Of a stretch of 49,692 nucleotides of DNA, positions 7,132 through 36,468 are shown piece by piece. Each line of letters opens with the position of its first letter. The first letter of the stretch is position 1. The notes beneath the pieces were generated by a model. The model did not search any database. It was not told the DNA's origin and saw only the letters and a list, made by a program, of their open reading frames with translations. The position numbers were made by a program, and so were the translations under genes. Origin of the DNA: an uncultured Elusimicrobia bacterium (lineage in GTDB: Bacteria > Elusimicrobiota > Elusimicrobia > UBA1565 > UBA9628); NCBI GenBank assembly GCA_964653765.1, contig CAZZGQ010000003.1, forward strand, positions 5,743-55,434, in the 5' to 3' direction.

Positions 7132-7162
7132 CGGAGGACCAAATAACTATAATAGCTCATCA

Positions 7163-15109: not shown

Positions 15110-15898
15110 ATGCGCCCCGCTCCGTCTCACCGGCCGTTCCCCTATCTCGAGCTGCTCTGGGAGCTGACGAGCGTCGAGTTCAGGCTGCGCGACCAAGGCA
15201 CGCTGCTGGGATTCTTCTGGACCTTGCTGCAGCCAGCCCTCATGTTCGCCGTGCTGTACGCGTTGTTCGTGCGCTGGCTTGGCCGCTTCGTCGATCAGTA
15301 CGCGGCCTACTTGCTCATCGGGCTTGTGCTGTGGAACTTCTTTCAAAAGGCGACCAGCGTGGGATTGACCAGTCTCAAACGTCGCGTGGCGCTCGTGCGC
15401 AACTACCGCTTCCCACGGGAGATCATCGTCATGTCCGCCGTCGGGGCTGTCTTCGCCTCGACGACGCTCGAGATCGTCGTTCTTACGCCCTTCTTGCTCG
15501 TCATGGGTCTTCGTCCGTCCTGGGCCTGGCTCATCTTGCCGCTGCTTTGCCTGCTATTGTTGGCGCTAGCGACAGCGGCGTCCATTGGGCTGGCGCTGCT
15601 GGCAGCGGAATTTCGCGATATCGAAAGAATCTGGGAGGTGGCGACAGCGGCCTTGTTCTATCTGACGCCCGTGTTTTATCCTCTCTCCATCGTCTCCGGG
15701 TGGCGGCGCCGCCTGCTCTCACTGAGCCCGCTGACCATGATCCTCTCGCAGACGCGCGGCTGCCTGATCGATGGCCAAGCTCCACACCCAATGCACCTGG
15801 CTGCCCTGGTCGCGCTCTGCGCGGCGCTCTTAGCCGCTAGTCTCTTGTGGTTGCGCCGCCGGGAGGATCGCCTTGGCGACACTCTCCTCTCTTATTGA
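15110..15898 (+). CDS. wzm: Polysaccharide ABC-2 exporter permease (Wzm/TagG-like)
   Basis: RDQGTLLGFFWTLLQP, FPREII, FRDI, FYLTPVFYP; six TM segments. Confidence 0.9.
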   Translation: MRPAPSHRPFPYLELLWELTSVEFRLRDQGTLLGFFWTLLQPALMFAVLYALFVRWLGRFVDQYAAYLLIGLVLWNFFQKATSVGLTSLKRRVALVRNYRFPREIIVMSAVGAVFASTTLEIVVLTPFLLVMGLRPSWAWLILPLLCLLLLALATAASIGLALLAAEFRDIERIWEVATAALFYLTPVFYPLSIVSGWRRRLLSLSPLTMILSQTRGCLIDGQAPHPMHLAALVALCAALLAASLLWLRRREDRLGDTLLSY

Positions 15899-17837
15899 AG
15901 CTCCGGCTGACGCCGACTGGGCTGTCCGTCTGGAGTCCATCGGCAAGCGCTTCGAGATCGGGGCGGCGCAACAGCGGCCCTCCCTGCTTCAGACGGCTCG
16001 GCGTTGGCTGACCGGCTCCGTCGAGAAACGCGAGCTCTGGGCGCTGCGCGGCGTCGATCTAGAGGTGCGCCGCGGTGAGATCCTGGGTCTCATCGGGCCT
16101 AACGGCGCCGGCAAAAGCACCATACTGCTGCTCACCGCGCGCATCTTGGTCCCGACTGAAGGCTCGATCAGCCTCCGCGGCCGCACCAATCCTTTTTTTC
16201 AGTTGTCGGCCGGCCTGCAGCCTGAACTGACGGTCCGGGAGAATTTCTCGCTCTGCGCGGCGTTGCTGGGCATCCCTCGCGCGGACTACCGACGCCACTT
16301 TGACAGGATCGTCGAGTTTGCCGAGTTGAGGCCGTACCTCAACGCCAGACTCGCCGAGTTATCCACGGGCTTGGCGGCGCGCGTGCCGTTCTCGACCGCC
16401 GTGCACGCCGACCTGGACATCCTTCTCGTCGACGAGATGCTCTCTGTCGGCGACGCGGCGTTTCAAGCCAAGTGCCGCGATGTCTTCATGCGCTTCAAGC
16501 GCCAGGGGAAGACGCTCCTGATCGTCTCGCACAACCTCGATCTCATTCGGACGCTCTGCGATCGATGCCTCTATTTGAGCGACGGCCGCGTCCGTTACCT
16601 GGGCGAGCCAGACGAAGCCGTCCGACGTCTTGCGAAGGACTTGCAGGTGGGCCATGAATCGCCGGCTGGCCCGCCGCAGGAGCGCCCCTCTCTCCCCATG
16701 GGGAACGACCGTCTCGATAAGGTCGAGTCCTCGCTCAGGAACATTGAAGCTCTGCTGCGGCAGCGATCTCTGGAAGGCATGCTCCCGCCTCAACTCAATC
16801 CGGCGCGGGTTTCTCCCACGCATTACGCCGAGACGCTGACGGTTGCCGCGGATCAATGGAAACGGACGCTGGGGCACGACGGGCCCTTGACCTTGGTGGA
16901 CAACTCGACGTCGGGCGCCTGGCTGGCGATGGCGCTTCTGGGCTCGAGCGCGATGGAGAGGCCTTTGGTTGAGGGCGACGAAATCATCACCAGCGCGATC
17001 GCTTATCCTGGCGTGGCTCAGGCGGCCGCTCTCCATGGCTGGCGTCTCATCGCCGCCGACGTCGACGCGTCGAGCTTCAATCTGACGCCTCAGGCCGTCG
17101 AGCGCGCCTTGACCCCTCGCACGCGAGCCGTCGTGGTCTGCCACTTGGCCGGCGGCTTCGCTGATATCGACGCGTTGCTGTCGCTCTGTCGGCGCAAGGG
17201 CCTCGTTCTCGTCGAGATGAGCGGGACGTTGGGCTCGACGCGGGACGGGCGCGTCCTGGGCTCGAGCGGCGATATCGGAGTCATTTCGATCCTGGAGGCT
17301 CCGAATTGGGCGATCGTGCAGGCCAAACGGCCCGAGTTCGGGACGCTCTTCTCCGAGATGATCGAGAGCGACCCGCGTTTCTGGAATCGGTGCCGGATTC
17401 TGGTCGAAAGCCTGGGAAGAAGGCCTTGGGCGAATCCCGTCGGCATCTCCGCGGCCCTTCAGGCGCTGCACCGCCGCGATCCGCGCGGGCGCGGCCCTCT
17501 GCTGCGAGCCTATGAGCAGGCGCTCGCCGAGATTCCGCGCTGGGGCCGGATATCCTTCTCGCCGGAATTGCGGACCTTCCCGCACCGTTGGAGCGCCGTT
17601 CTCCTGGAGGACAACCGCCCTGGAGGTCCCGAGGCTTTGATCGCGAGCTTGGCGCGCGAAGGCGTCAACGCTCATCGCTATGGCTCGCTGGCTTGGTGGA
17701 CGCCCTCTCGGGAGGCTGTTGGCCTCTACCCCCACGCGCGCGCCTTACTCGAGCGTGCGATCAAGATCCAGCTCCCGTCAGCTGATGAACTGGACCGCTG
17801 GTTGAAGGTCCTGCATGGACTCTCCGGGCCAAGCTAA
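15873..17837 (+). CDS. wzt: Wzt/TagH-like ABC ATPase fused to a degenerate DegT/RfbH-like PLP-fold domain
   Basis: GPNGAGKST, LSTG, LLVDE, VGDAAFQAKC, IVSH. C-terminal NSTSGAWLAM..GDEIITSA, DVD..SFN, TRAVVVCHLAG. Confidence 0.85.
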   Translation: MATLSSLIEAPADADWAVRLESIGKRFEIGAAQQRPSLLQTARRWLTGSVEKRELWALRGVDLEVRRGEILGLIGPNGAGKSTILLLTARILVPTEGSISLRGRTNPFFQLSAGLQPELTVRENFSLCAALLGIPRADYRRHFDRIVEFAELRPYLNARLAELSTGLAARVPFSTAVHADLDILLVDEMLSVGDAAFQAKCRDVFMRFKRQGKTLLIVSHNLDLIRTLCDRCLYLSDGRVRYLGEPDEAVRRLAKDLQVGHESPAGPPQERPSLPMGNDRLDKVESSLRNIEALLRQRSLEGMLPPQLNPARVSPTHYAETLTVAADQWKRTLGHDGPLTLVDNSTSGAWLAMALLGSSAMERPLVEGDEIITSAIAYPGVAQAAALHGWRLIAADVDASSFNLTPQAVERALTPRTRAVVVCHLAGGFADIDALLSLCRRKGLVLVEMSGTLGSTRDGRVLGSSGDIGVISILEAPNWAIVQAKRPEFGTLFSEMIESDPRFWNRCRILVESLGRRPWANPVGISAALQALHRRDPRGRGPLLRAYEQALAEIPRWGRISFSPELRTFPHRWSAVLLEDNRPGGPEALIASLAREGVNAHRYGSLAWWTPSREAVGLYPHARALLERAIKIQLPSADELDRWLKVLHGLSGPS

Positions 17838-23302: not shown

Positions 23303-23368
23303 ATGGCGTGTCCTGCAAAGTCGTCGTCAGCCAGCGGGTGCAAGTCCAAGCCGGAGCCCAAGCGATGA
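23303..23368 (+). CDS. Candidate 21-aa peptide MACPAKSSSASGCKSKPEPKR
   Basis: ATG 8 nt after TATAAT (23289-23294); its TGA overlaps the next ATG (ATGA at 23365-23368). Could be chance. Confidence 0.3.
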   Translation: MACPAKSSSASGCKSKPEPKR

Positions 23369-25200
23369 GCCGGCTGTGCGGGGCCTGGGCGCTTGACGGA
23401 CGTCCGATCGAGGCGCTCCTCGAAGAGGCCGAGGCGCGGTCCATGAAGGGGCAACTCGGCGGCCCCGGGGACGCCCTCGAGGAAATGAGGCGGGGACCGC
23501 TGTGGCTCGTCAGCGCGCCCGGACGTACCCTCGCCGATCAGGCCGGCGCCCTCGCCGTCGAAGGTTTCGTCGACTCCTCGTCGTGGCGGCCCGATCTGCT
23601 GGCGAACGCGCGGCGACGGAGCGAGTCGCTGCTCGACGTGGAGGGCCATTGCGTGGCCGCCTTCGCAGATTGGCAGGCCGGCAGCCTGACGCTGGCTCGC
23701 GACCCGAGCGGCGGCGAGAGGCTATACTACGCGCGCCTGGGAAAGCTCTTGCTGTTTTCGGCCTCGGTGCGGCCGCTGCTCGCTCATGGCGGGATATCCC
23801 GTCAGGCCGATCCCGACATGGTCCGCGAGTACCTCGTCAACGGCGCGTTGTTCTCGCAGGCGCGGACGCTATTCCCGGGCGTCGACGAGCTGGAGCCGGA
23901 CGAGGCGATCACCTTCCAGTCCAACCAGCAACGCGCGCACCGTCCAGCCCGTTACCCTCCCCCCGAGGAGCTCGCCGAGGAGACCTGCCGTCGTCTGCTG
24001 CGCGACGGCCTCACCCAGGCGACGGCCGCGATGATCGGGTCGCGGAAGGCCATCGCCGTGGCCCTGTCGGGAGGCGTCGATTCAGCGACCATCGCTGCGC
24101 TCGCTCGCGACGTCGTTGGCGCCGAGAATGTCCACGCCTTCACGTACGAGTTCCCCGACTCTGGCCTGGGCTCCGAAGCGCCCTACGCCAAGTCCGTCTG
24201 CCGGCACCTCGGCCTGCGCGATCCCGAGATCGTGTCCATCCGATACCGAGATCATTTGGAGGCGCTGCCGGAGGCCGTCTGGCGTTGCGAAGAGACCGGA
24301 TCCACGCGCGGCAACCCGACGACGATGCTGCTGTCCAAGGCCGTCGCCGCGGCAGGCTTCGACCGCCTGCTGACAGGGAATCTGATGGAGGTGCTGCTTT
24401 GGACGGGTCTTTCGCGGCACAAGAGGCTTGAGGATTTCGCCCGGCTCGCGCCGCGCCTGCCGGCGCCGCAGTGGACGCTCGCTCATTGGCGCTGGCGCAA
24501 GAGGCTGGGGCGGCCCGGACGCTCCCTGCTCGAGGCGGCCGTTCCAGGATTTTCGGCGCCAGAGGAGCCGTATTACTTCATCGTGCTCGCCATCTTGGCC
24601 GCCAACGGCGTCATCGACGACATCGCGCCCTTCTTTCCTTCCGAGCTGGGCGCCGCCGCGCGCCGGACGCTCGAGGGGCCGGGCATCCAAGCGCGGTTGC
24701 GCCACCTTAGGCACGCGCCGCTGACGGATCAGTTGCGCTACGGCTGCTTCGTGGGCCACGATCAAGGCCGTCTGCTGCTCAAGAAGCTCAAGCTGACGCG
24801 CGAGGCGGGAGCGCCCGTTCTCGCTCCCGCCGCCATGCCCGCTGCCACCATCCACAACAGGCACTTCCGCTGGCACGCGCTGCGCCAGGGAAGCCGTCCC
24901 TCCAAGTTCCTCCTCAAGGAGGCGATGCGCGGTCGGCTGCCCGACGAAGTCATCGATCGCCCGAAGATCGAAGACTCGATGATCGTTCCGCAGCGCTGGT
25001 TCTCCGCCTCCATCGAGACGCTTCGGCCGGCGCTGGAGCCTTCGGCTCGCCTGCTGCTGGACACGTTGCCCGAAGGCCCGCCGCTGCGCCCTCACGTGGA
25101 GGACAACCTGCTGCGGCTGGCCCTTTGGCACCGGCTGCTCGTCGCCAGGCCGCTGCGCGCCGATCCTCCTTCGCTGTCGGAGCTGGAGGAGGGCTCTTGA
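23365..25200 (+). CDS. Asparagine-synthetase/lasso-cyclase-like protein 1
   Basis: MSRLCGAW, RDPSGGERLYY, LSGGVDS, KFLLKEAMRGRLP..V.DRPK; no N-terminal Cys nucleophile. Start chosen by alignment with the paralogs. Confidence 0.85.
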   Translation: MSRLCGAWALDGRPIEALLEEAEARSMKGQLGGPGDALEEMRRGPLWLVSAPGRTLADQAGALAVEGFVDSSSWRPDLLANARRRSESLLDVEGHCVAAFADWQAGSLTLARDPSGGERLYYARLGKLLLFSASVRPLLAHGGISRQADPDMVREYLVNGALFSQARTLFPGVDELEPDEAITFQSNQQRAHRPARYPPPEELAEETCRRLLRDGLTQATAAMIGSRKAIAVALSGGVDSATIAALARDVVGAENVHAFTYEFPDSGLGSEAPYAKSVCRHLGLRDPEIVSIRYRDHLEALPEAVWRCEETGSTRGNPTTMLLSKAVAAAGFDRLLTGNLMEVLLWTGLSRHKRLEDFARLAPRLPAPQWTLAHWRWRKRLGRPGRSLLEAAVPGFSAPEEPYYFIVLAILAANGVIDDIAPFFPSELGAAARRTLEGPGIQARLRHLRHAPLTDQLRYGCFVGHDQGRLLLKKLKLTREAGAPVLAPAAMPAATIHNRHFRWHALRQGSRPSKFLLKEAMRGRLPDEVIDRPKIEDSMIVPQRWFSASIETLRPALEPSARLLLDTLPEGPPLRPHVEDNLLRLALWHRLLVARPLRADPPSLSELEEGS

Positions 25201-26972
25201 TGGCGCTCTCGGGAGCGTGGTCCATCTCGGGAAGGCCGCTCGAAGCGATCCTCACGGCGCGTGAGACGCAGGCCCTCGGCGGCGCGGCCGCGCTCGACCT
25301 CGGCCCTTTGCGCTTGCTGGCCGATCCCGCGAGGACAGCGCGCGTGGCGAGCGGGTGCGCGGCGTTCCATGGAATCCTCGCTGTCGCCGACTCGTCCGAA
25401 GCCTTGCGCGGCTGGTTGTCGCGTTCGGGAGAAGGCCCTCCTCTCTTTGAGGGCCACTACGCGGCGCTCAAGATGGACGCGCAGCGGCGGCGTCTAGCGC
25501 TTTGGCGCGATCCGACCGGGGACGTCCGCCTCTACTACGCGCGGCGCGGCGAAGTCCTGTTCTTCTCCACGTCGCTCCGGACGCTGCTTTCCTGCGGCTG
25601 GTCGCTCGAGCTGGAGGCGCAAGCCGTGGCGCAGCGCGCGCTCAACGAGCTGCCGGCCTTTGGCAATGGCACGCCGCTGCGCGGCGTTGAGGAGGTGCTG
25701 GCGGGCTACGAGCTGCGCGCCTCGCCCGACGGGATCTTCCACCGTTGGGCTTGGTCGAGCCTGCTCGAGCCGGCGACCGCGCCATCGCCCGAAGCCGAGG
25801 CGGCGCAGTTGCGCGCGGGACTGGAGGAAGCGGTGGGCCGATCGATCCGCCGCGGCGGCGACGTGGCCGTGGCCCTGTCCGGAGGCATCGACTCCTCGGC
25901 GATCGCGGCCGCGGCGGCGGCCCTAGCGGGCCCGGACCGCCTGCACGCCTTCACCTACGAGTTCGAGGACGCCAGTCACCCTTCGGAGGTCCCCTATGCG
26001 GCCGCCGTCTGCCGGCACCTGGGCGTCCGGCGCCATACGGTGGTGAGCATCTCGGCTCAAGAGTATCGTCGCGGCGTGGCTCCCGCGATCCGAGCCTCGG
26101 AGGACGCCGTCTATTGGCGAAGACCCTACGTGAGCGCTTTCGTGCGCCGTATCCGGGACAGCGGCTTCACCTCTTATCTCACGGGCTACGGCTTCGGCAG
26201 CCATCTCGCCGCGATCCAGGATGTCGCAGACCTGCTCGAGTGGCTGCCGGCATTGGGACTCACGCTGCGTCACTGGCGAGCCCCTCCCCCTTCGGCGGCG
26301 CCGGACCGCTTCTTGATCGAGCTCGGCGCGCCTTCCTGGCAGTCACGGCTTCATCCGGGCCTCGCCCGCCCTTTTCCGCGCCTCCTTCTGCCGATCGCGG
26401 CGGTGCTGGCCCACCGTGGACGCCGCGACGCCGTGGCGGCCCTCTATCCGAAAGAGTTGCGGCCTCTCGTCGACCGCGCTCTAGGATCCCAAGCCTTCGC
26501 GCGGAGCCTAGCTGAGCTCGACGGTCTGAGTCTCGCGGCGGCGCTGACCCGGCTCTGCTTTGTCCGCCTCAACTCGAGCGTCGACGCCACGCGCCACGCC
26601 ACCTCCTCCTCGGCCGAGGGCGTCTGGGCTGTATCGCCGGCGTCGTTCCCGAGCCTGCTGCAACTGACCCACCTGCCCCATCGTCGCGTCGCGGCGGACA
26701 GAACATCGCGCGCGCGCCCGGGCAAGAGCGCGTTGAGGAGGGCGATGCGCGGCATCCTGCCGAACGACATCATCGAGCGCAAGAAGTACTGGCCGCATCC
26801 CGGAGGCCCTATGTCCTGGCGGACGCGGGCTTTGGCCGAGATGAACGAAGGCTCGTCCCGAGCCTTTGAGGACTTGCGCGGCGTCCTGGGGCGCGACTTC
26901 CATGCCGCCCAAGGATATTTCCCGGCGCACCTCGCGCCGCTAGCGCTCTGGCGCGATCTCTTCCCTTCCTAA
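25200..26972 (+). CDS. Asparagine-synthetase/lasso-cyclase-like protein 2
   Basis: MALSGAW, RDPTGDVRLYY, LSGGIDS, HAFTYEF, RPGKSALRRAMRGILP; TGATG coupling to paralog 1. Confidence 0.85.
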   Translation: MALSGAWSISGRPLEAILTARETQALGGAAALDLGPLRLLADPARTARVASGCAAFHGILAVADSSEALRGWLSRSGEGPPLFEGHYAALKMDAQRRRLALWRDPTGDVRLYYARRGEVLFFSTSLRTLLSCGWSLELEAQAVAQRALNELPAFGNGTPLRGVEEVLAGYELRASPDGIFHRWAWSSLLEPATAPSPEAEAAQLRAGLEEAVGRSIRRGGDVAVALSGGIDSSAIAAAAAALAGPDRLHAFTYEFEDASHPSEVPYAAAVCRHLGVRRHTVVSISAQEYRRGVAPAIRASEDAVYWRRPYVSAFVRRIRDSGFTSYLTGYGFGSHLAAIQDVADLLEWLPALGLTLRHWRAPPPSAAPDRFLIELGAPSWQSRLHPGLARPFPRLLLPIAAVLAHRGRRDAVAALYPKELRPLVDRALGSQAFARSLAELDGLSLAAALTRLCFVRLNSSVDATRHATSSSAEGVWAVSPASFPSLLQLTHLPHRRVAADRTSRARPGKSALRRAMRGILPNDIIERKKYWPHPGGPMSWRTRALAEMNEGSSRAFEDLRGVLGRDFHAAQGYFPAHLAPLALWRDLFPS

Positions 26973-28382
26973 GGCTGGGTCAGGCCAGCGCTGCGCCCAG
27001 GGCCGGGCTTGCTCGAGCTGCGCCGCCAAGCGCAGCAGCGTCGCTTCGCCGCCGAAGCGGCCCGTGAAGTGGCTGCCGAGGGGCAGTCCCTCGGCGCTCC
27101 AGTACAAAGGCACGCTCATCGCCGGCTGTCCCGTGAGGCTTGAGACCATCGTGTAGGGCGCGAAGGCCCTCGCGGCCTCCAGGAGAGCTTCGTCGACCGT
27201 CTGGGACGCGAACGCCCCGAGCCGGGGCGCGACGGTCGCTGTCGTCGGAGTCAGGTACGCGTCGATGGACTCGAAGTGACCGGCAATCCGGCGGGCCAGG
27301 CCTTGAACATCCTGCCACGCCCTAAGGTACTCGGCGGCCGTCACGCGCCGACCTCGCTCGTAGAGGTCCCAGGTCAGCGGCTCAAGCTCCGACGGCTCGG
27401 GGGCTCGTCCGAGCCGCCGCGTCCAGGAGTCGATCTGCCAGGCGCATTCCGCAGCGCGGATCTTCAGGATCACCTCGGAAAGCCCTTCGCCCTTTGGCGG
27501 CGGCGGAGCTTCCACCATCTCGTGGCCCAGGTCGAGGCACAAGGAAACGGTCTGCTCGAGCGCTTGGGCGGCCTCTGCGCCAAGTCTCCAGCCGTGGTCG
27601 CCGAAGGCGATCCTCAACCTGCCAGGAGGCGTCTTGACCTCCTTGGCGTAGGGGCGCTGGATGGCGGGAGCGCAATAAGGGTCGCCGACGTCGGGCCCCG
27701 CCGTGGCATCCAGAAACGCCGCCGCGTCGCGAACAGAGCGGGTGATCATGCCCTCCCGCGCGAGACCGCTCGCGAAGTCGCCGTAGTGAGGGCCCCACGG
27801 CGTGCGGCCGCGCGTCGGGTTGAGCGCGAAAACGCCGCAGCAGGACGCAGGGATGCGCAGGGAGCCCCCTCCGTCGTTGCCGTGGGCCGCCGGCACCAGT
27901 CCGGCCGCCACGGCGGCGGCGGCGCCCCCGCTCGACCCGCCAGGGCTGCGCCGCCGGTCCCAGGGGTTGAGCGTCGGGCCAAAGGCCGCGGGCTCGGTCG
28001 TCGGAAGGACCCCGAACTCCGACGCGTTCGTCTTGCCGACCACGACGACGCCCGCCGACCTCAACCGCCGGACGAACGTGCTGTCTCGCTCGCAGCGGTA
28101 CTTGCGCAAAAAACGGGAGCCGTTGGACAGCGGCGTCCCCGCCATCTCCGTGGCTAGGTCCTTCAAGCCGACAGGCACTCCGCTCAAGGGAGCCGACGTC
28201 GGACACTGGCGAGCGTCCTGCCTCGCCGGCTCCTCCAGAAGGTGGATGACAGCGTTGAGGGCGGGATCGCGCGCGATGCGGGCGATCGCCGCCTCCGCAA
28301 GGTCGACCGCGGCCAGCTCCTTGCGCTGGACGAGCTCGGCCTGTCCGACGGCGTCATACCGCGCCAACTCATCCGCAGTCAT
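26940..28382 (-). CDS. Amidase-signature family enzyme
   Basis: [19 protein letters not shown]...[21 protein letters not shown] (Lys-cisSer-Ser triad). Confidence 0.92.
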
Positions 28383-28433
28383 CGACCTTCGGAGCGTAGC
28401 ATATCGCGCGATGAGATCGAGACTCGTTTCGAG

Positions 28434-28462
28434 TTGACACTGCCGGCCTCGAGCGCTAGACT
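28434..28462 (+). promoter_or_regulatory. sigma70 promoter for the paralog 3/4-rSAM-oxygenase operon
   Basis: TTGACA-N17-TAGACT. Confidence 0.65.
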
Positions 28463-28474
28463 ACGAAAGCCCTC

Positions 28475-30247
28475 ATGTCCGACCTCTGCGGCGCTTGGAC
28501 GTTGGACGGCTCGGCAGTCGACAGGGCGCTCCCCGAGCCCATCCGCCGCCGCATGGCCGCGCGGCTTCCCAAACGCTCCGCGGACGCCATCGAGACCGTC
28601 GATGGGCGGCTTTGGCTCATCGGCCCAAGTCAACGGCAGGCGGCCGCGGAACGCTGTTGCTTGGCCAGCGTCGGCTTTGTCGCGGCGCTAGCTCCCGGTT
28701 CCTCCGGTCTCGAGGACGCCTGGCGCCGGGCGCTGGCCGGAGAGCTGGACGGCCACTGCGTCCTCGTCCGCGCTGATCTCGGGACAGGAGTCCTCTCGCT
28801 CTACCGCGACCCGACCGGCGAGGAGCGCCTGCATTACGCCCGCCTTGGGAACCTCCTACTGTTTAGCTCCTCGATCAAGCCGCTGCTCGCTCATCCGGAA
28901 CTGCCGGCGCGGCTGGATCCCGGCGTCTTCGCGCAACGCGCTCTGGCCCGCGTGACGTGCTTCGGCGAAGATACCTTGCTGGCCGGAGTCGCCGAGGTCA
29001 AGGCAGGTCACCGGCTTGTGGTCGAAGGCGCGCGGTGGCTCCAAGAAGAGATCGGCGGCGATCGCCTGCGCGCCGGCCAAGAAGCTTCGGTGGCGGACGA
29101 CAACCTAAAGGCCATGCTTGCCCGCGGCGTCCGCGCCAGCCTCGACGGCGCCGCGCGCGCGGCCGTCAGCCTCTCGGGCGGCGTGGACTCGGCCGCCGTT
29201 GCCGCGATGGCGGTCGACATCGTGGGGGCGAGCAACGTCCACGCTTTCACCTACGAGTTCGACGAGGCTAGCCATCCCAACGAGACGGCGCACGCCGCGG
29301 CGGTCTGCCGGAGCCTCGGTATCGTCCAGCACCATGTCTTGAGGGTCGAGAGACGGCGCTGGCTGGACGCCCGGCTCGCCATGCTTTGGTGGTCGGAGGA
29401 TTTCAGGAACGTCGACAAGGCCTTCTTGCTCGAGCAGGACGAGCAGCTCAAGCAGCTAGGCTTCGACACGATCCTGACCGGGGACGGCGTCGGAAGCCGG
29501 CTCGAATGGCTCGACAGCGTCGCTCGCTGGCTGCCGCGCGGCGCGCCGCTCGATTGGCTGGCGCCGTATTGGCGCGCCTTCTGGGGACGGTCCCGCTTGC
29601 CGTCGGCCTGGCTTGGCGCGAGGCTTCCGTCGGCGACGCCCCCCTATCACTACCTTCACTTTCCGCTCGTCGGCGTACTGCATGGATGCCGCTTGATCCG
29701 AGAGCCCTCCCTGTTCTTCCCGGAGCCTGTGCGAGAAGCGGCGGCCCGCGCGCTGGCGTCCCCGCGCGTGCGCGCCGCGCTCGAGGAAACAGCCGCGTTG
29801 CCGCTCGACGAACGGTTGCGGCGCCTCGTCTACGGCCAAGCCCTCGCCTCTCCGGATCTGGCGCGCCCCGCGGCCATGTCGCGGCGGCGCGGCGTCCGCA
29901 GGCTGGCGCCGACGGCTTTTGCGAGCTGCATGCCGGCGCTCTTGCGCCAGCGGTTCGGCAAGCCGGCGCTGCGGCGGCTGCTTCGTGGCCGGATACCCGA
30001 GGCCCTGCTGCGACGGCCTAAGGAGATGACCCAGGCGGTCGCGCCCCTGGCTTGGCATTTCTCGTACGCGCGGCCGCTGAAGCTGAGGGGCCTGCCGGCG
30101 CCTTTCGATCAGGAGCGGGCGGCCCTCGCGGCGCCGTTCGTCACCGGAAACCTCCATCACCTCACGCTCTGGCGCGACGTCTTCCTCCAGGAACGCCGCG
30201 GCGGCGAGCCGCCGCGCTGGGATGAATTGGACGGCGCAGCGCCATGA
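28475..30247 (+). CDS. Asparagine-synthetase/lasso-cyclase-like protein 3
   Basis: MSDLCGAW, RDPTGEERLHY, LSGGVDS, HAFTYEF, GKPALRRLLRGRIP..RRPK. Confidence 0.85.
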   Translation: MSDLCGAWTLDGSAVDRALPEPIRRRMAARLPKRSADAIETVDGRLWLIGPSQRQAAAERCCLASVGFVAALAPGSSGLEDAWRRALAGELDGHCVLVRADLGTGVLSLYRDPTGEERLHYARLGNLLLFSSSIKPLLAHPELPARLDPGVFAQRALARVTCFGEDTLLAGVAEVKAGHRLVVEGARWLQEEIGGDRLRAGQEASVADDNLKAMLARGVRASLDGAARAAVSLSGGVDSAAVAAMAVDIVGASNVHAFTYEFDEASHPNETAHAAAVCRSLGIVQHHVLRVERRRWLDARLAMLWWSEDFRNVDKAFLLEQDEQLKQLGFDTILTGDGVGSRLEWLDSVARWLPRGAPLDWLAPYWRAFWGRSRLPSAWLGARLPSATPPYHYLHFPLVGVLHGCRLIREPSLFFPEPVREAAARALASPRVRAALEETAALPLDERLRRLVYGQALASPDLARPAAMSRRRGVRRLAPTAFASCMPALLRQRFGKPALRRLLRGRIPEALLRRPKEMTQAVAPLAWHFSYARPLKLRGLPAPFDQERAALAAPFVTGNLHHLTLWRDVFLQERRGGEPPRWDELDGAAP

Positions 30248-32034
30248 GCTTCTGCGGCGCCTGGTCCCTCGATGGCCGGCCTATCGCCGAGATCCTCGGC
30301 GAGCCGGAGCGTGCCTCGATGCGCGGGCTGCTGATGCCGACGACCGGCGAGCCCGTTGAGGTCGAAGAGGGCCCGCTTTGGCTGGCGGGCTCGACGGGCT
30401 CGATCGTGCGCGACGGCAGCGGTTGGCTGGGCCTGGAGGGTTTTGTGGCGGGAGCCGGCGACGGCGACGCGCTACGAAAGACGGCCGGCGAGGCCTGCGC
30501 GGCTGGGCGCTGCCGCCTAGACGGCCACTACATCCTGCTCCACGCCGACCCGGTCGGCCGGGCGCTAAGGGCCTGGAGAGACCCTTCGGGAGGGCAACGA
30601 CTTTTTTTCGCTTGCCGCGGACGAGGGCTCCTATTCTCCACGTCAATCCGGCCGCTCCTGGCTCTGCTCGGGAGCCAACTTAACGAGGGACTTCTTTTCG
30701 AGACGGGTTATACGGACCTGGTCCACTTCGGCGACGAGACTCTCTGGCGGGGCGTCCACGAGATCCTGGCCGGCTACCGTCTGTCGGTCGTCCACGGGCG
30801 ACTGGAACACCGCTGGCACTGGGACGACCTTCAAGGCCGCGCGGGAGAGCCGCGCGCGCTGGCGAGCGAGCTCAAGGTCCGCCTGGGAGAGGCCGTCGCC
30901 GCGTCGATCGGGCGCGATGGCGCTGCCGTCGTGACCTTGTCCGGCGGCATCGACTCGGCCTCGGTGGCCGCGCTCGCGGCAGAGGCGGTCGGCGCCCATC
31001 GCGTCCATGCCATCACCTTCGAGTTCGACGATCCATCATGCCGCTCAGAGGTGGAGAGGGCCAGCCTGGTCTGCAAGCACTTGGGCTTGGGCCGGCACAG
31101 CGTTGTTCGCATCTCACGCCGGGATTACGAGCAGTCGATCCCGGAGATCCTCTGGCGCAGCGAACATTTCAACGAGTGGACGCGTTGCGACGGCTTGATC
31201 GTCTCTCGCCGGTTGCGTGAATGGGGCGTCGGCAAGTGCTTGACGGGCGGCGGCATCGGCAGTCACATGGCCTACTTCGAGGACGTGGACGCGGTCCTAC
31301 GCGCGCTGCCCCGGGGCCTGGAGCCTTGGCGGTATTGGCGGGCGGCGCACTTCGGAGGGAGGCCGGGAGACTGGCTGGGGCGCGTTTTCCCGGGTCTGGA
31401 GGCTCCAGCCGGCCGTCAACGATTCCGCCTCTATCTCCCTTTGGCGTACGCGCTCCACCACCGCGGCCTAGCGGATTTGGGCCGCTTCTTTCCCCCGACG
31501 CTTCTCGAACCCGCCCTTCGGACGGCGCAGTCGCCCAGGGTGCGGCAGGCGCTCGAGGAGCACTCGGCGCTGCCGCTGGCGGTTCAATGGCAGCGCCTGG
31601 CGCTCTCCCACCTCGGGGGCCAGATCGACTTCAGCCGCACGGAGCGCGCTGCGCAGGGGGTGGGGGTGCACAAGATATCCCCCGCCTTCTTCGCCTCGTG
31701 CCTGCCGTGGACTTATTTTCCGTTTCGGCCCAAGCCGGCGGCTTGGAGCCCAAGACGCGCGCTGCGTCCGGGCAAGCTGCTGCTGGCGTTGGCCATGCGC
31801 GGGCGGCTGCCCGATGCCGTGATCGACCAGCGAAAGGACTGGTCGACCGGCGACCTCCCCATGAGCTGGCACGAGCGGACCCTGGCGCTGGCCGAGCCCG
31901 TCGAGATCCCTTTCACGCATGCCCGCGGCCGGAGTGTGTTTCTGGCCTATCAATCGCTTTGGCGTCGCATATTCCTCGAACGCCCGCCCGGCCGCGAGCC
32001 GCCGGCCTGGGAGGAGCTCGAGAAGACCGTATGA
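30244..32034 (+). CDS. Asparagine-synthetase/lasso-cyclase-like protein 4
   Basis: MSFCGAW, RDPSGGQRLFF, LSGGIDS, RPGKLLLALAMRGRLP; ATGA overlaps at both ends. Confidence 0.85.
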   Translation: MSFCGAWSLDGRPIAEILGEPERASMRGLLMPTTGEPVEVEEGPLWLAGSTGSIVRDGSGWLGLEGFVAGAGDGDALRKTAGEACAAGRCRLDGHYILLHADPVGRALRAWRDPSGGQRLFFACRGRGLLFSTSIRPLLALLGSQLNEGLLFETGYTDLVHFGDETLWRGVHEILAGYRLSVVHGRLEHRWHWDDLQGRAGEPRALASELKVRLGEAVAASIGRDGAAVVTLSGGIDSASVAALAAEAVGAHRVHAITFEFDDPSCRSEVERASLVCKHLGLGRHSVVRISRRDYEQSIPEILWRSEHFNEWTRCDGLIVSRRLREWGVGKCLTGGGIGSHMAYFEDVDAVLRALPRGLEPWRYWRAAHFGGRPGDWLGRVFPGLEAPAGRQRFRLYLPLAYALHHRGLADLGRFFPPTLLEPALRTAQSPRVRQALEEHSALPLAVQWQRLALSHLGGQIDFSRTERAAQGVGVHKISPAFFASCLPWTYFPFRPKPAAWSPRRALRPGKLLLALAMRGRLPDAVIDQRKDWSTGDLPMSWHERTLALAEPVEIPFTHARGRSVFLAYQSLWRRIFLERPPGREPPAWEELEKTV

Positions 32035-33599
32035 GCGTCGCGGACATCGTCCTGCTGTCGGACTGCACGGGATATGGAGACCTCATCTTCTCCCGTTACA
32101 GCGCTCCTTACGTCCTGGCCACGCGCCTGCGCGCGGCCGGCTTCGGAGTCCGAGTGATCGACTACTTCACGCGCCACCCCGACTTTTTCCCCTATCTGCG
32201 GGGCTTCCTCGGGTCCGAGACGCTTTTCATCGGTCTCTCCTCCACTTTCCTCTCGCAAGGCCGCGAGGCGCACCATGCGCCTATCTCCAAGACGGACCAG
32301 ACCAGGCTCTATCACGAGAGCCTGCTCTGGCACGCCAGCGACGAAGAGACGCAGGCCTGGCTGGCGCGATTGAAGGCGACGCTGGCCGAGGCGAGTCCGG
32401 CAGCCGCTCTCGTCCTCGGCGGCGTCAAGGCGGCGCAGACCCATCGCAAGCCGCAGACGTACGCGGGCGTCCTCGACTATGTCGTATTGGGCCCCGCCGA
32501 CGACGCAATCGTCGAGCTCGCGCGGGCGCTGCGGGCCGGCCGCGCGCCGCCCCACAGCCTCAAGGAGGGAGTGCGCTTCGTCTCAGAAAGCGAGTCGCCC
32601 GCGATCTGCCCCGCCACCGTGCTGAAGGAAGCCGACGCCATCCAGCCGGCCGAGGCCCTGCCCGTCGAGATCAGCCGAGGCTGCCTCTACGACTGCAAGT
32701 TCTGCTACTACGACAAGAAGCGGAGCGTGCGCAAGGACCTGGCCTTGCTGCGCGAGGAGCTGCTTCGCAACTACGAGGGCTTCGGAACCACGGTCTATCA
32801 CTTCTGCGACGACTGCTTCAACGACACGCCGGACAAGGTCGAGGCCGTCTGCGGCATGCTCAGGAAGCTGCCGTTCGAGATAGAGTGGGTCAGCTACGCG
32901 CGTCCCGACGTCCACGTCAAGCGCCCGGAGCTGCTCGACCTGATGATCGAGGCGGGCTGCCGCGGCCTCTACTACGGCCTGGAGACCTTCAATCACGCCG
33001 CCGGCAAAGCCGCGGGCAAGGCCGTGCCGCCCGAGGCGATCAAGCGCTTCTTTTCCCAAGCGTACCCGAAGCACCGCCACCGCGCCTTGTTCGACGCCTC
33101 CTTCGTGATCGGGCTGCCGCACGAGACGGCGGAGAGCCAGCGGCAAACGACGCGATGGCTCATCGAGAACAAGGTCTTCGATCATGTCCACTGCGCGACC
33201 TTGGCGCACGCGCCTTACGACAGCGCGCTCGACAAATTGGCCGTCGACTACGCCGACCATGTGCGCCATCCCGATCGCTACGGCTTCTCGATGCTGCCGA
33301 GCCGCTCCTCTGGGTATTGGCGGCACGCGACGATGGACCTGCCTCAGGCCGCGGCGCTGCAGGAGGAGATGCGCGCGCGCCTCGATGAGGCCTACGGCGT
33401 CCCGGTGGTGCGGAGCTGCTTCATGTACCCGGCGATGCGGACGCTGGGCTTCACCCCTGAGGAGACGTTGCTCATGGCGCGCGAGGGCGCGCTCGACCGG
33501 AGTCAAGCCTGGCTGGCCGAGGCACAGCGCCGGACCCGCGGCTGGCTGACGCGTTACTGGGACGCCTTGGCGGCAACGAGACCGGGGGCCCTCCGATGA
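32031..33599 (+). CDS. B12-binding-domain radical SAM protein
   Basis: N-terminal Rossmann/B12-like domain (LATRLRAAGF.V.VIDY, IGLSST, LVLGG); EISRGCLYDCKFC; DDCFN, YGLET, FVIGLPHET. True start is ATG 32031, not 31221. Confidence 0.88.
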   Translation: MSVADIVLLSDCTGYGDLIFSRYSAPYVLATRLRAAGFGVRVIDYFTRHPDFFPYLRGFLGSETLFIGLSSTFLSQGREAHHAPISKTDQTRLYHESLLWHASDEETQAWLARLKATLAEASPAAALVLGGVKAAQTHRKPQTYAGVLDYVVLGPADDAIVELARALRAGRAPPHSLKEGVRFVSESESPAICPATVLKEADAIQPAEALPVEISRGCLYDCKFCYYDKKRSVRKDLALLREELLRNYEGFGTTVYHFCDDCFNDTPDKVEAVCGMLRKLPFEIEWVSYARPDVHVKRPELLDLMIEAGCRGLYYGLETFNHAAGKAAGKAVPPEAIKRFFSQAYPKHRHRALFDASFVIGLPHETAESQRQTTRWLIENKVFDHVHCATLAHAPYDSALDKLAVDYADHVRHPDRYGFSMLPSRSSGYWRHATMDLPQAAALQEEMRARLDEAYGVPVVRSCFMYPAMRTLGFTPEETLLMAREGALDRSQAWLAEAQRRTRGWLTRYWDALAATRPGALR

Positions 33600-34384
33600 C
33601 TCTCGACGAGCGCTATCTGTTCGCCACGGAGTTCCTTGCCGAGCCGGCCGTCCAAGTCCGCCTGATCGAGGCCGTGCGCGAGAGCGGCGAGCTCTCGAGC
33701 GGCTCCTTCGACAACGCCGGCGCGCCCTATTGGCGGTGGAAGAGCCTGACGCTGCCCGTGCCCGAGAGCCTTCCCTCCGGCGTCCGCGCTTTCCTGGACC
33801 GTCGCCCCGCGGCCGATTTCGACCGCTGGTCCTATTTCTCGCGGCTCGATCCATCCCTGGAATGGCGTTGGACGGAGGGCCGGGCGAGCGATCTCGTGCG
33901 CGCTATCTTGGCTCCCGTTGAGCGCCTCTTCCGTAAGCTCACGCGCGTCAAAGTCGACCTGCAGATACCGGGACAGGCCTTGCCTGCCCACCGCGACCTC
34001 GTCCCGGGCTCCCATTACGACACGCTGCAGTCGGAGTATTCTCACGCTTGGGGCGAGCGCCGTCTGATGTATAGGGCGCAGCCGTGGCTCTGGGAGGCCG
34101 GCCCGTTGCGTAATATCGAGCACCGCGACAACCGCTATCTATCGATGAAAATCCCTCTCTCCGAGAAGGCGGACGATCCTGGCCAGCCCTACGTCGTCAT
34201 CGGCGCGCAACGGCACTATTACACCTCGCGCAACCGCCTTTTTTTCCTCAACGAGGCCGAGATGTTCCACGGCGCCGACCCGGCGGACCATTGGCGCGGC
34301 GTCGTATTCGTCAACGGCCTCTGGGACCTGGACGCGCTCGACGGCTACACGAAGCGTCCGATCGAGGTCCTGCGTACGCTGTGA
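33596..34384 (+). CDS. AspH-like 2OG-Fe(II) oxygenase (cupin fold)
   Basis: TRV...PG..LPAHRD (HxD) and distal F.LN...FHGA His; ATGA coupled to the rSAM gene. Confidence 0.68.
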   Translation: MTLDERYLFATEFLAEPAVQVRLIEAVRESGELSSGSFDNAGAPYWRWKSLTLPVPESLPSGVRAFLDRRPAADFDRWSYFSRLDPSLEWRWTEGRASDLVRAILAPVERLFRKLTRVKVDLQIPGQALPAHRDLVPGSHYDTLQSEYSHAWGERRLMYRAQPWLWEAGPLRNIEHRDNRYLSMKIPLSEKADDPGQPYVVIGAQRHYYTSRNRLFFLNEAEMFHGADPADHWRGVVFVNGLWDLDALDGYTKRPIEVLRTL

Positions 34385-34433: not shown

Positions 34434-34462
34434 TTGACACCCCCTAGGGTTGCTGCTATAGT
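34434..34462 (+). promoter_or_regulatory. sigma70 promoter for the dctP-like pair
   Basis: TTGACA-N17-TATAGT with extended TG; GAGGAG RBS before ATG 34503. Confidence 0.75.
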
Positions 34463-34502: not shown

Positions 34503-35480
34503 ATGAGCGATTCAAGCGCGCTGTCGCACGTCGATCCCGCGGTTCAAGATCCCTCCTTCGTCGTTCGCTGGGTTCTGGCGCACGAGCCCGTTGCTGTCTT
34601 CGAGAAAGCCTCGCGCCGCTTCGGCGAGCTGATCCGAGAGCGTACAGGCCGCAGGATGGACGTCCGCGTGCTGACGTGCAGCGAGTTCGGCAAGGGCACG
34701 CCAGTCTCCCCTCTCAACGTCGCCGGCGCCTTGATGCAGGGCAAGCTGGAGATGACGCAGACGTACACGCCGCTGCTCGGCCTCTACGCCTTCGACCTCT
34801 GGGCTCTTGACCTGCCGTTCCTTTTTCGCGATCATGCCCACGCCGCGCGCGTGCTCGATGGCGCCGTGGGCCAGCGGCTGATGCGTGGCCTGCGCCGCTT
34901 CGGTGTCCGGGGCCTGGCGTTCACCTACAGCGGCGGCTATCGGCTCATCGCCGCCAAGGACCGCCAGATCCGCCGCTGGGAGGACTTCGCCGGTTTGCGC
35001 CTGCGCACCTCGCACAGCCCCGTGGCCGTGCGCCTCATCGAAAGCCTGGGAGCCGAGCCTATCCCGAGCCCGGCGGAGTCCATCGTGGCCTTGGCGCAGA
35101 GCGGCGAGATCGACTCCGCCGAGACCACTTACCCCCGCTATTGGGCGCTCGACCAAGGCTCGACGCTGCGCACGCTCAACGAGACCTGGCACAGCTTGTT
35201 CTTGACGGTCATGGCCGTCAGCGACCGCTTCTATGCCTCGTTGCCGCCGGCTTATCAGCAGGCGCTGGAGTCCGCCGCCCGCGAGGTTGCTGTCATGGAG
35301 CGCGCCCAATCAGTCGCCGACGGCGAGATGGCTCGCCGCGGCGCGCTCGAGCGCGGAATGACCGTCGTCACGATGTCCGAGGACGAGCGCCGCCGCTTCG
35401 CCCGCCGGACGGAACCGTTGTACGAGCAGTTCGCGCCGCTGTTCGGCCGGGACCTGCTCGACGCCCTGCGCCAGGGATGA
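34503..35480 (+). CDS. dctP: TRAP DctP-family substrate-binding protein lacking a signal peptide
   Basis: LDLPFLFRD..HA..VLDG.VG, YSGGYR, GLRLRT, ET.HSLFLT; hydrophilic N-terminus. Confidence 0.85.
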   Translation: MSDSSALSHVDPAVQDPSFVVRWVLAHEPVAVFEKASRRFGELIRERTGRRMDVRVLTCSEFGKGTPVSPLNVAGALMQGKLEMTQTYTPLLGLYAFDLWALDLPFLFRDHAHAARVLDGAVGQRLMRGLRRFGVRGLAFTYSGGYRLIAAKDRQIRRWEDFAGLRLRTSHSPVAVRLIESLGAEPIPSPAESIVALAQSGEIDSAETTYPRYWALDQGSTLRTLNETWHSLFLTVMAVSDRFYASLPPAYQQALESAAREVAVMERAQSVADGEMARRGALERGMTVVTMSEDERRRFARRTEPLYEQFAPLFGRDLLDALRQG

Positions 35481-35490
35481 TGAGGAGACC

Positions 35491-36468
35491 ATGACCACTA
35501 AGAGCTCGCGTCGCGCCTCCGCCTCCGTCGCACGCCAGACGCCCATGCGCTTGACGTGGGTGCTTGCCCACGAGCCGGTCTCGGTCTTCGAGGCGGCCGC
35601 GCGGCGCTTCGCGGAGATCCTGCGCGGAGAAAGCGACGGCCGCCTCGAGGTCGACGTGATCTCGGCGACCCAGCACAACGGCGGCCGCCGGATGACCCCG
35701 GCGGAGGTGATCCAAGAGGTCGCCTCGGGGCGCATCCAGATGTGCCAGACGTATACCACCGCTTTCGGCGAGCGGCATGAGCCGCTGCGCGCCCTCGATC
35801 TGCCGTTCCTGTTCGAGAGCCACGAGCACGCGGCGCGCGCGCTCGACGGCGCCGTCGGGCAGCGCCTGATGGACGGCCTGCGGCCGCAAGGCCTTCGCGG
35901 CCTCGGCTTCACCTACAGCGGCGGCTACCGCGTGCTGTCGTCGGCGTCTCGGCAGATCCGGTGTCCGGAGGATCTGGCCGGCCTGCGCGTGCGCACGGCG
36001 CCCAGCCCTGTGGCCCAGGCTGTCTTCGAGACCTGGGGCGCCGTCGCTGTCCCGGCGCCGCTTCATGAGACCCCGGCCTTGGCCCGGGCCGGCCGCATCG
36101 ACGCCGCCGAGACGACTTACCCGCGCTACTGGGATCAAGGGCAGAGCGAGGCGCACCGCGTCGTCAGCGAGACGCGCCACAGCTTGCTGCTGACGATGAT
36201 GGTCCTCAACGAGGACTTCTACCAAGGCCTCTCGGCCCGCGAGCGCGAGGCCGTCCGCCACGCGGCTGCCGAGGCCGCACGCCTCGAGCGCGCCACGTCG
36301 ATCGAGCAAGGCGAGGACGTCAAACGCCGCTGTCCGGAGCGCGGCATCGCTGTCGTCGACGTCGCCGAGGCGCAACGCGAGCGCTTCCGCGCGCTGGCGC
36401 GGCCGGTCTATGAGCGGTTCATCCCGGTCGTCGGAGCCGGTCTCGTCAAAGAGCTCCAAGACGCTTAG
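35491..36468 (+). CDS. dctP: Second DctP-family protein (tandem paralog), also lacking a signal peptide
   Basis: Same motifs (WVLAHEP, LDLPFLF, FTYSGGYR, AETTYPRYW, HSL); GAGGAG RBS. Confidence 0.85.
   Translation: MTTKSSRRASASVARQTPMRLTWVLAHEPVSVFEAAARRFAEILRGESDGRLEVDVISATQHNGGRRMTPAEVIQEVASGRIQMCQTYTTAFGERHEPLRALDLPFLFESHEHAARALDGAVGQRLMDGLRPQGLRGLGFTYSGGYRVLSSASRQIRCPEDLAGLRVRTAPSPVAQAVFETWGAVAVPAPLHETPALARAGRIDAAETTYPRYWDQGQSEAHRVVSETRHSLLLTMMVLNEDFYQGLSAREREAVRHAAAEAARLERATSIEQGEDVKRRCPERGIAVVDVAEAQRERFRALARPVYERFIPVVGAGLVKELQDA

Follow-up and report, generated by a model that had tools for sequence, protein, structure and literature searches.

The DNA stretch studied here (the window, 49,692 nucleotides of contig CAZZGQ010000003.1 from an uncultured Elusimicrobia bacterium) carries between positions 23365 and 32034 four intact plus-strand genes for proteins related to asparagine synthetase (AsnB), named A, B, C and D in the following, and one antisense amidase gene that the initial annotation of these paralogs does not mention. 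The four proteins fall into a clade of the AsnB superfamily that is rare and clearly set apart. We tentatively regard them, with slightly more doubt than confidence, as active, individually maintained, glutamine-independent and ATP-dependent carboxylate-amine ligases whose multiplication would serve a number of steps in the making of a single product.

The four paralogs and their placement in the AsnB superfamily

The paralogs are situated in the window as follows, group I and clade II being the two types that are found within the family:

23365-25200, plus strand: paralog A, 611 amino acids from the ATG at 23365 (the open reading frame opens with GTG at 23308); group I; motif TGNLME; N-terminus MSRLCGAW
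25200-26972, plus strand: paralog B, 590 amino acids from the ATG at 25200 (the open reading frame opens with TTG at 25125); clade IIb; motif TGYGFGS; N-terminus MALSGAW
28475-30247, plus strand: paralog C, 590 amino acids; clade IIa; motif TGDGVGS; N-terminus MSDLCGAW
30244-32034, plus strand: paralog D, 596 amino acids; clade IIa; motif TGGGIGS; N-terminus MSFCGAW

Four AsnB-like paralogs of about 590 to 610 amino acids had been predicted at this place, which is confirmed by the open reading frames of 611, 590, 590 and 596 amino acids; the motifs then listed as shared (GAW, RDPxG, SGGxDS, HAxTxEF, VCxxLG and a C-terminal LW) are all invariant columns in the alignment of A to D. Contigs from soil metagenome runs belonging to two studies tile the array piecewise and exhibit 0 differences in pieces longer than 150 bases; one metagenome contig covers 23365-29167, and the paralogs do not differ among the contigs of four DNA runs. 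The array can therefore not have arisen through misassembly of a single data set. No RNA run is found among the sequencing runs listed for this DNA stretch.

B and C are each 33% identical to A, and D is 35% identical to it. Pfam Asn_synthase matches all four proteins (E 9e-28 to 3e-16), within the first 127-170 of its 354 profile positions only. The scores of A to D for the NCBIfam models lie far below the cut-offs throughout: 105.7, 105.5, 91.4 and 75.7 bits against 267.1 for TIGR01536 (AsnB), 17-36 against 499 for NF006949, 44.4, 49.5, 41.4 and 20.4 against 525 for NF033535 (lasso cyclase), 56-71 against 300 for NF033561 (albusnodin/ikarugamycin-family macrolactam cyclase), 34-64 against 816.9 for TIGR03108 (XrtA/PEP-CTERM amidotransferase), and 25-78 against 570.1 for TIGR03104 (NAGGN amidotransferase). 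A profile of the four paralogs retrieved 69 proteins at 159-923 bits from 1.84 billion representatives, three of the window's own included; full-length family members score at least 264 bits in this search, and generic AsnB proteins follow at no more than 147 bits. The family members sampled are all metagenomic and bear no other names than 'hypothetical' or 'asparagine synthase-related'. Protein and profile searches found no relative of the window paralogs with more than 50% identity, and an Atlas search with B returned generic 'asparagine synthase domain' clusters only.

The family is monophyletic with respect to generic AsnB, with a support of 100 both in the FastTree tree (81 rows including 16 generic AsnB outgroups, fragments shorter than 540 amino acids being dropped) and in the quick IQ-TREE tree (61 rows including 15 generic AsnB outgroups, 20 partial, duplicate or long-branch rows being dropped). 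The phylogenetic comparison with AsnB that had been proposed together with the idea of a distinct subfamily thus separates the two, and the NCBIfam scores agree with it. Within the family, clade II is robust (support of 96 in FastTree and 99 in IQ-TREE); group I obtained a support of 84 in FastTree but forms a basal grade in IQ-TREE, and it is therefore kept here as a type.

The AlphaFold2 model of C (predicted local distance difference test, pLDDT, 90; predicted template modelling score, pTM, 0.92) exhibits the two-domain AsnB architecture. In Foldseek, it matches TsnB9, beta-lactam synthetase, AsnB, carbapenam synthetase and human ASNS best (E 8e-18 to 3e-13) and all of them about equally well, at 13-17% identity.

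N-terminal and C-terminal domains

In an alignment of 65 family rows and 16 generic AsnB rows, the places of the generic motifs MCG, HRGPD, RLsIiD..QP, NGEiYN and DTE are taken in the family by gaps or unrelated residues. Because the HRGPD, RLsIiD..QP, NGEiYN and DTE motifs are all deleted, the glutaminase is judged to be dead, in accordance with the initial view of these proteins; as far as can be read from its sequence, the N-terminal domain is a glutaminase fold without a glutamine site. Pfam GATase_7 matches A to D weakly (19-26 bits) and with its last 55 or so positions only. Cys is indeed not residue 2 in any of the four N-termini given above. The further statement that the glutaminase Cys is lacking is literally true of B, which possesses Ser4, whereas A, C and D carry Cys at residues 5, 5 and 4, respectively. 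In the model of C, this Cys opens the first beta strand (E5-9). Among 42 readable family representatives, 20 possess Cys at this N-terminal position, never as residue 2, and 22 possess another residue (Leu, Val, Phe, Met, Ser or others).

Concerning the C-terminal half, the pyrophosphate loop (PP-loop) SGGxDS is invariant in A to D, and its columns, which generic AsnB conserves as well, are kept in 23-24 of the 24 group I rows and in 36-37 of the 39 clade II rows. The numbering of AsnB residues follows a hidden Markov model (HMM) alignment to 1CT9, in which LSGEG ends at residue 349. The Lys aligned with K449 is found in 16/16 generic, 20/24 group I and 37/39 clade II rows, and the Lys aligned with K429 in 16/16 generic and 37/39 clade II rows, group I exhibiting Arg at this site in 17 of 24 rows. 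At the position of Asp351, which we take to be the second metal-binding Asp, all 16 generic rows have Asp, 19 of 24 group I rows have Glu, and 38 of 39 clade II rows have Gly. At that of Glu352, Glu is found in 14 of 16 generic rows and Ser in 35 of 39 clade II rows, while group I is variable. Further on, clade II possesses a near-invariant Asp (37/39) and Arg (36/39) of its own. Paralog A has Glu at the Asp351 position and a loop of 7-8 residues; the second Gly of its motif is replaced by Leu, a departure from a Gly conserved in the group. The earlier report that the GxGxDE motif, read as TGNLME, TGYGFGS, TGDGVGS and TGGGIGS, has lost its Asp consequently holds for B, C and D, whereas A carries Glu.

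Maintenance, distribution and neighbouring genes

In both trees, each of the four paralogs has a partner of its own among the copies of the related Elusimicrobiota genome G012. The ortholog of A (L012 11875-13743) is 43% identical to it, with a support of 97 in FastTree and 99 in IQ-TREE; B groups with copies of G012 and of two other related genomes, G007 and G027, and C and D are situated together in another subclade with G012 copies. As each copy has its own ortholog in G012, the duplications are older than the divergence of the two genera, and all copies have been retained. The closest orthologs of the paralogs are 38-48% identical at the protein level, and synonymous sites are saturated. 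Among the conserved columns, A keeps 67 of 78 (group I), B 54, C 52 and D 55 of 60 (clade II), the medians of the other members being 71 for group I and 58 for clade II. There is no sign of decay in A to D, and none of them looks like a pseudogene. The suggestion made at first that some may be pseudo-enzymes is contradicted by the retention of nearly all clade-conserved residues and by the separate G012 ortholog of each paralog.

The metagenome-assembled genome (MAG) of the window holds only these four family copies, five further matches being generic (at most 67 bits). Family-level matches are found in 3 of 40 relatives, with 2 matches in G007, 6 on two contigs in G012 and 3 in G027, and in a phylum sample of 400 genomes, of each of which three candidates were scored, 3 genomes exhibit matches with E <1e-100. 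A scan of one genome per species yielded 21 family loci in MAGs labelled Alphaproteobacteria, Planctomycetota, Myxococcota/delta-proteobacteria, Terriglobia, Dehalococcoidia, 'Enterobacterales' and Elusimicrobia; it used an 11-row subgroup alignment centred on clade II, such that group I may be under-sampled outside Elusimicrobiota. The 19 loci outside G007 and G027 possess one family gene each, one of them split, and whole-genome searches of five non-Elusimicrobiota genomes gave exactly one member in every case. These single-copy genomes indicate that the multi-copy array is an Elusimicrobiota speciality and that clade II enzymes can work alone, and the same five genomes speak against obligatory heteromers, which had been considered initially. 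An obligatory pair of group I and clade II proteins was rejected as well: both types are present in all four Elusimicrobiota genomes with context, but a single clade II gene is found in each of the five others. Concerning the integrity of individual copies elsewhere, one G027 copy (L014 11539-13461) seems interrupted, its first 90 or so profile positions being missing and a TGA being reported in one search, and an alphaproteobacterial copy (L018 9752-11806) is split into two open reading frames.

The other features of the array and its surroundings are the following:

26940-28382, minus strand: amidase-signature enzyme, 480 amino acids, between B and C; Pfam Amidase E 1.9e-98
28434-28462, plus strand: promoter-like site TTGACA-17-TAGACT, 13 bases before the start of C; consensus match only
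32031-33599, plus strand: B12-binding radical S-adenosylmethionine (SAM) enzyme, 522 amino acids; Pfam Radical_SAM and weak B12-binding
33596-34384, plus strand: protein of 262 amino acids, family unassigned, HxD...H pattern; ATGA overlap with the radical SAM gene
34434-34462: promoter-like site before the first DctP-type gene; consensus match only
34503-35480, plus strand: DctP-type binding protein 1, 325 amino acids, without signal peptide; Pfam DctP E 1.6e-47
35491-36468, plus strand: DctP-type binding protein 2, 325 amino acids, without signal peptide; Pfam DctP E 1.4e-55

Between 23365 and 36468, successive genes overlap or directly adjoin one another. In the sequence TGATG, the stop codon of A runs into the start of B; ATGA overlaps, i.e., translational coupling, link C, D, the radical SAM gene and the gene of the 262-amino-acid protein in series, and the 3' ends of B and the amidase gene overlap by 33 bases. 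Promoter-like sites are situated upstream of A, of C and of the first DctP-type gene, and by consensus alone 7 sites were counted against 0.7 expected in shuffles.

A clustering of neighbours over 24 loci revealed one recurrent specific partner, the DctP-type binding protein, with orthologs of more than 450 bits in 11 of these loci and in several phyla. In G413, G414 and G415, i.e., in three of the five genomes searched whole, the only such ortholog of the genome adjoins the AsnB-like gene. Judged by eye, 11 of the 12 DctP-type copies listed are without a hydrophobic N-terminus, the domain starting at once (RWVLAHEP). Their GLRxRT motif (GLRVRT in copy 2) aligns with GLKIRT/GLK[IV]R of solved binding proteins of tripartite ATP-independent periplasmic (TRAP) transporters, the Arg, presumably the carboxylate-binding residue, being kept. 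With DctP solute-binding proteins of TRAP transporters, they share Pfam DctP over its full length, the best solved relatives at E 2e-31 and this Arg, whereas they differ from them in the signal peptide missing from 11 of 12 listed copies, in the genetic link to a cytoplasmic ligase, and in their surroundings: no DctQ or DctM was found among the window's open reading frames scanned with Pfam. The pair resembles an intracellular branch of a periplasmic receptor family. In the literature searched, from which subscription journals fall out, neither a paper on this AsnB-like clade nor a report of an AsnB-DctP pairing was found.

Other neighbours occur by lineage, i.e., an NMT1-type binding protein with a permease, DctM, a CBS-pair protein, a zinc-ribbon membrane protein, and unknown proteins. 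An ATP-binding cassette (ABC) ATPase was rejected as a conserved neighbour (10 loci), as the match reflects generic ABC similarity, with exporter-type partners here and importer-type partners elsewhere. The radical SAM gene has its best NCBIfam match in the PhpK family (82.8 bits against a cut-off of 600) and a 52% identical ortholog in G012. The 262-amino-acid protein, for which no Pfam or NCBIfam match was found, has a 59% identical G012 ortholog and a PAHRD...FHG (HxD...H) pattern; an Atlas lead points to 2-oxoglutarate (2OG)/Asp_Arg_Hydrox clusters at 0.93, and its structure model has a pLDDT of 28. By its pattern, it may be a candidate Fe(II) oxygenase. A 56% identical ortholog of the amidase is situated beside the AsnB-like genes of G012; in the same genome, an open reading frame (L011 5446-5976, minus strand) starts AsnB-like with MSGFCGAW and continues with the C-terminal part of an amidase (50% identity over 167 amino acids to the window amidase), apparently a recombination scar beside the intact amidase.

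The window genome (G000) and G012 share genes for an ABC-2 permease, an ABC ATPase fused to a DegT-like piece, and glycosyltransferases of families 2 and 4 (GT2, GT4). The fused ATPase (15873-17837, plus strand), at a Wzt-like position after the ABC-2 permease, combines with a partial DegT/aminotransferase-like domain and is kept in G012 with 39% identity over 619 amino acids. A 244-amino-acid haem-oxygenase-like di-iron protein (10081-10815, minus strand; Pfam Haem_oxygenas_2 with 31 bits against a cut-off of 28.9) has a 56% identical ortholog adjoining the ABC exporter genes of G012; such di-iron enzymes are usually seen in small-molecule tailoring. A protein of 611 amino acids (7067-8902, plus strand) exhibits a twin-arginine-like N-terminus, a Redoxin domain and then about 400 residues of unknown family; one homolog of it in G007 and two in G027 adjoin AsnB-like genes. 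Within the glycan-type gene block, an extra PP-loop protein of 275 amino acids (14014-14841, minus strand; N-terminal SGGTDS) bears a faint similarity to QueC/DUF7411. A radical SAM/SPASM gene (46407-47558, minus strand), situated beside GT2 and about 14 kb from the array, could serve peptide maturation, although no test made here linked it to the paralogs. In G007, a gene situated a few kb away from the AsnB-like ones (L013 371-2005) combines an exosortase (EpsH)-like domain with an Rce1-like CAAX protease domain in one fusion.

Proposed function and alternatives

From these features, we infer a mode of action in which the N-terminal domain would be only a scaffold that cannot hydrolyse glutamine, whereas the C-terminal domain would bind ATP through the PP-loop and adenylate a carboxyl group, to be attacked by an amine (free ammonia or an amine-bearing co-substrate) under formation of an amide, by analogy with PdmN, beta-lactam synthetase and the lasso cyclases. 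The array would have arisen by the multiplication, specific to Elusimicrobiota, of a gene of which other lineages possess a single copy, and its copies would most likely do separate amide-forming steps on one carboxylate-rich product, which the co-transcribed B12 radical SAM enzyme and the 262-amino-acid protein would tailor further. The two cytoplasmic DctP-type proteins may keep the acid substrate bound or pass it on; the antisense amidase may be a source of ammonia or take an amide off again. Concerning this substrate, an acid sugar is suggested by the glycan-type genes on the flanks in three Elusimicrobiota genomes, and a small organic acid, which would perhaps be attached to a glycan later, by the partner genes of other phyla and by the tailoring genes co-transcribed here.

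Several findings weigh against regarding A to D as amide-forming ligases of this kind. Clade II, i.e., B, C and D, has not only exchanged the residues at the Asp351 and Glu352 positions for Gly and Ser as described above; the following loop with its conserved Tyr is also gone, by a deletion of 7 residues. According to PMC13060819, a Glu363-Tyr368 pair of PesC is kept in five asparagine synthetase-like (AS-like) enzymes, and the Y368F variant is inactive. Going by spacing only, this pair would correspond to the loop deleted in clade II. Owing to the loss of the Asp/Glu-Tyr site, canonical adenylation chemistry may be altered or lost in clade II, which either runs the reaction with different residues or does different chemistry. 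Furthermore, the alphaproteobacterial loci and both alphaproteobacterial genomes lack the DctP-like protein, the amidase occurs in only 2 of the 24 loci and is absent from the other 22, and a sugar-bound carboxylate would fit equally well to the flanks in the three Elusimicrobiota genomes, which are glycan-type (GT2, GT4, GT-C, ABC-2). We consider it decidedly unlikely that a cytoplasmic TRAP-type protein hands an organic acid to a rebuilt ligase, whose site would dispense with Asp351/Glu352 and the Tyr loop and use a new Asp/Arg/Ser-His set, and that the four to six Elusimicrobiota copies, together with the B12 radical SAM enzyme, oxygenases and the amidase, build a multiply amide-linked product.

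Among known systems, PdmN (pradimicin) and the proposed Tln4/TlnF resemble the family in having the AsnB architecture without the N-terminal catalytic Cys, at the position of which B possesses Ser; PMC12636320 describes PdmN-type homologues as ligating amino acids to carboxylates. In this reaction, a co-substrate that bears an amine is linked to a carboxyl group, and no nitrogen is transferred from glutamine. Compared by description only, the window family differs from them in an N-terminal extension of 3-4 residues, in a clade II without Asp351/Glu352 and Tyr loop, and in having DctP-like neighbours instead of polyketide genes. Beta-lactam synthetase (1JGT) and carbapenam synthetase (1Q15) share the two-domain fold, the dead N-terminal scaffold, the PP-loop and the C-terminal Lys (Foldseek E about 1e-16 to 3e-15 with the model of C, sequence profile E 1.7e-12), but the identity amounts to 13-17%. 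In the HMM alignment, TGY of beta-lactam synthetase is followed by an acidic residue, at which B, C and D have Gly and A has Glu. By analogy, the family may work like these two synthetases, yet it is not a member of theirs. With AsnB of E. coli (1CT9; TIGR01536), it shares the fold, SGGxDS and the GK..LR...LP....R.K motif with both lysines, whereas Cys at residue 2 is lacking, the glutamine-binding motifs are deleted, and LSGEGSDE is altered to LTGxGxGS or LTGxGxE. The best structural and sequence match among solved structures, at 15-16% identity, is the hydroxyamidotransferase TsnB9 (7YLZ), which, according to PMC6133997, draws its nitrogen group from a glutamyl donor via the N-terminal domain; in the window family, this domain is stripped of the binding motifs.

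It is unlikely that A to D amidate the carboxyl groups of uronic or other sugar acids in a surface glycan, each paralog serving a different sugar position, with nitrogen from free ammonia or the neighbouring amidase and not from an internal glutaminase. WbpS-type enzymes are thought to amidate uronic-acid carboxyls of surface glycans, and the surroundings would suit such a role, as the array is flanked by genes for a YdjC deacetylase, a methyltransferase, GT28-like and PMT_2-like GT-C proteins and ABC-2/ABC ATPase components, with GT2 and GT4 genes further out; the G012 copies adjoin GT2, GT4 and ABC-2 genes, and G007 has ABC-2, a PMT_2 protein and an exosortase-like protein. However, no glycosyltransferase was recognised among the conserved neighbours of the 19 non-Elusimicrobiota loci, these being DctP-like proteins, NMT1-type and permease importer parts, DctM, CBS and unknown proteins. 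The co-transcribed genes encode a radical SAM enzyme, a possible oxygenase and carboxylate-binding proteins, and the scores for the glycan-associated AsnB model TIGR03108 are far from its cut-off of 817 bits.

That at least one copy is a non-catalytic pseudo-enzyme, i.e., a scaffold or regulator, appears less probable still. Candidates would be A with its TGNLME motif, in which the second, group-conserved Gly has become Leu, or the clade II copies, which have lost Asp351 and the Glu-Tyr loop; the Arg that replaces the Lys aligned with K429 in 17 of 24 group I rows also points in this direction. Against this, the PP-loop is essentially invariant in both groups, the window copies keep about as many conserved columns as their relatives, and the clade II enzymes that stand alone in five of five other genomes must function by themselves.

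It is very improbable that the rebuilt site performs another PP-loop chemistry, such as conversion of an amide to a nitrile, transfer of sulfur or another heteroatom, or ATP-driven opening of an amide or lactam, which in this case would be taken up by the neighbouring transport-type proteins. The loss of carboxylate-activating residues and the gain of the new Asp/Arg/Ser-His set in clade II would fit this, as would the importer-type neighbours in several phyla, and PesC is described in PMC13060819 as an example of AS-like enzymes going beyond amidation; the overall architecture, however, stays that of amide-forming enzymes. An Fe-S or persulfide mechanism was rejected for the window: cysteines are invariant in the LLGAW subgroup, but B, C and D do not keep them.

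A modification of ribosomal peptides (macrolactam formation, C-terminal amidation or Lys acylation, as in lasso cyclases or TsrC/ScdTA/PesC-type enzymes) is hardly to be expected. Glutaminase-dead AsnB homologues are typical of lasso pathways, lasso and macrolactam cyclases being such homologues that use the substrate's own amine, the similarity to the models NF033535 and NF033561 is perceptible if weak, the radical SAM/SPASM gene is situated 14 kb off, and AS-like enzymes amidate peptide C-termini according to PMC13060819; yet the scores for both models are far below the cut-offs, the coupled operons leave no room for a precursor, and neither precursor, leader protease nor RRE partner was found. 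No small open reading frame is conserved between the window and four related loci (L011-L014), although short or fast-evolving precursors could escape such a comparison, and no lasso B/RRE-type or protease gene was recognised among the open reading frames scanned with Pfam, a scan that leaves aside very short ones. The peptide precursor envisaged as a substrate in the initial annotation is accordingly not borne out.

Returning to A to D as multiplied ligases, their interest would be modest in the case of plain glycan amidation. If a TRAP-type protein indeed handed over the acid, the system would be a functional analogue of the siderophore synthetases that are independent of nonribosomal peptide synthetases (NRPS), on the asparagine synthetase fold. 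The amide-forming asparagine synthetase superfamily has repeatedly yielded unusual chemistry, e.g., beta-lactams, lasso knots, hydroxamates, nitriles and amino-acid-decorated polyketides, and the clade described here, unnamed in databases, occurs in MAGs of at least six labelled lineages without the residues thought to be needed for carboxylate activation. The recurrent pairing with an intracellular DctP-type protein would, if functional, mean that a transport receptor has been enlisted to work with an enzyme, which would be unusual, and the four-gene array provides a natural set of diverged paralogs for studies of specificity.

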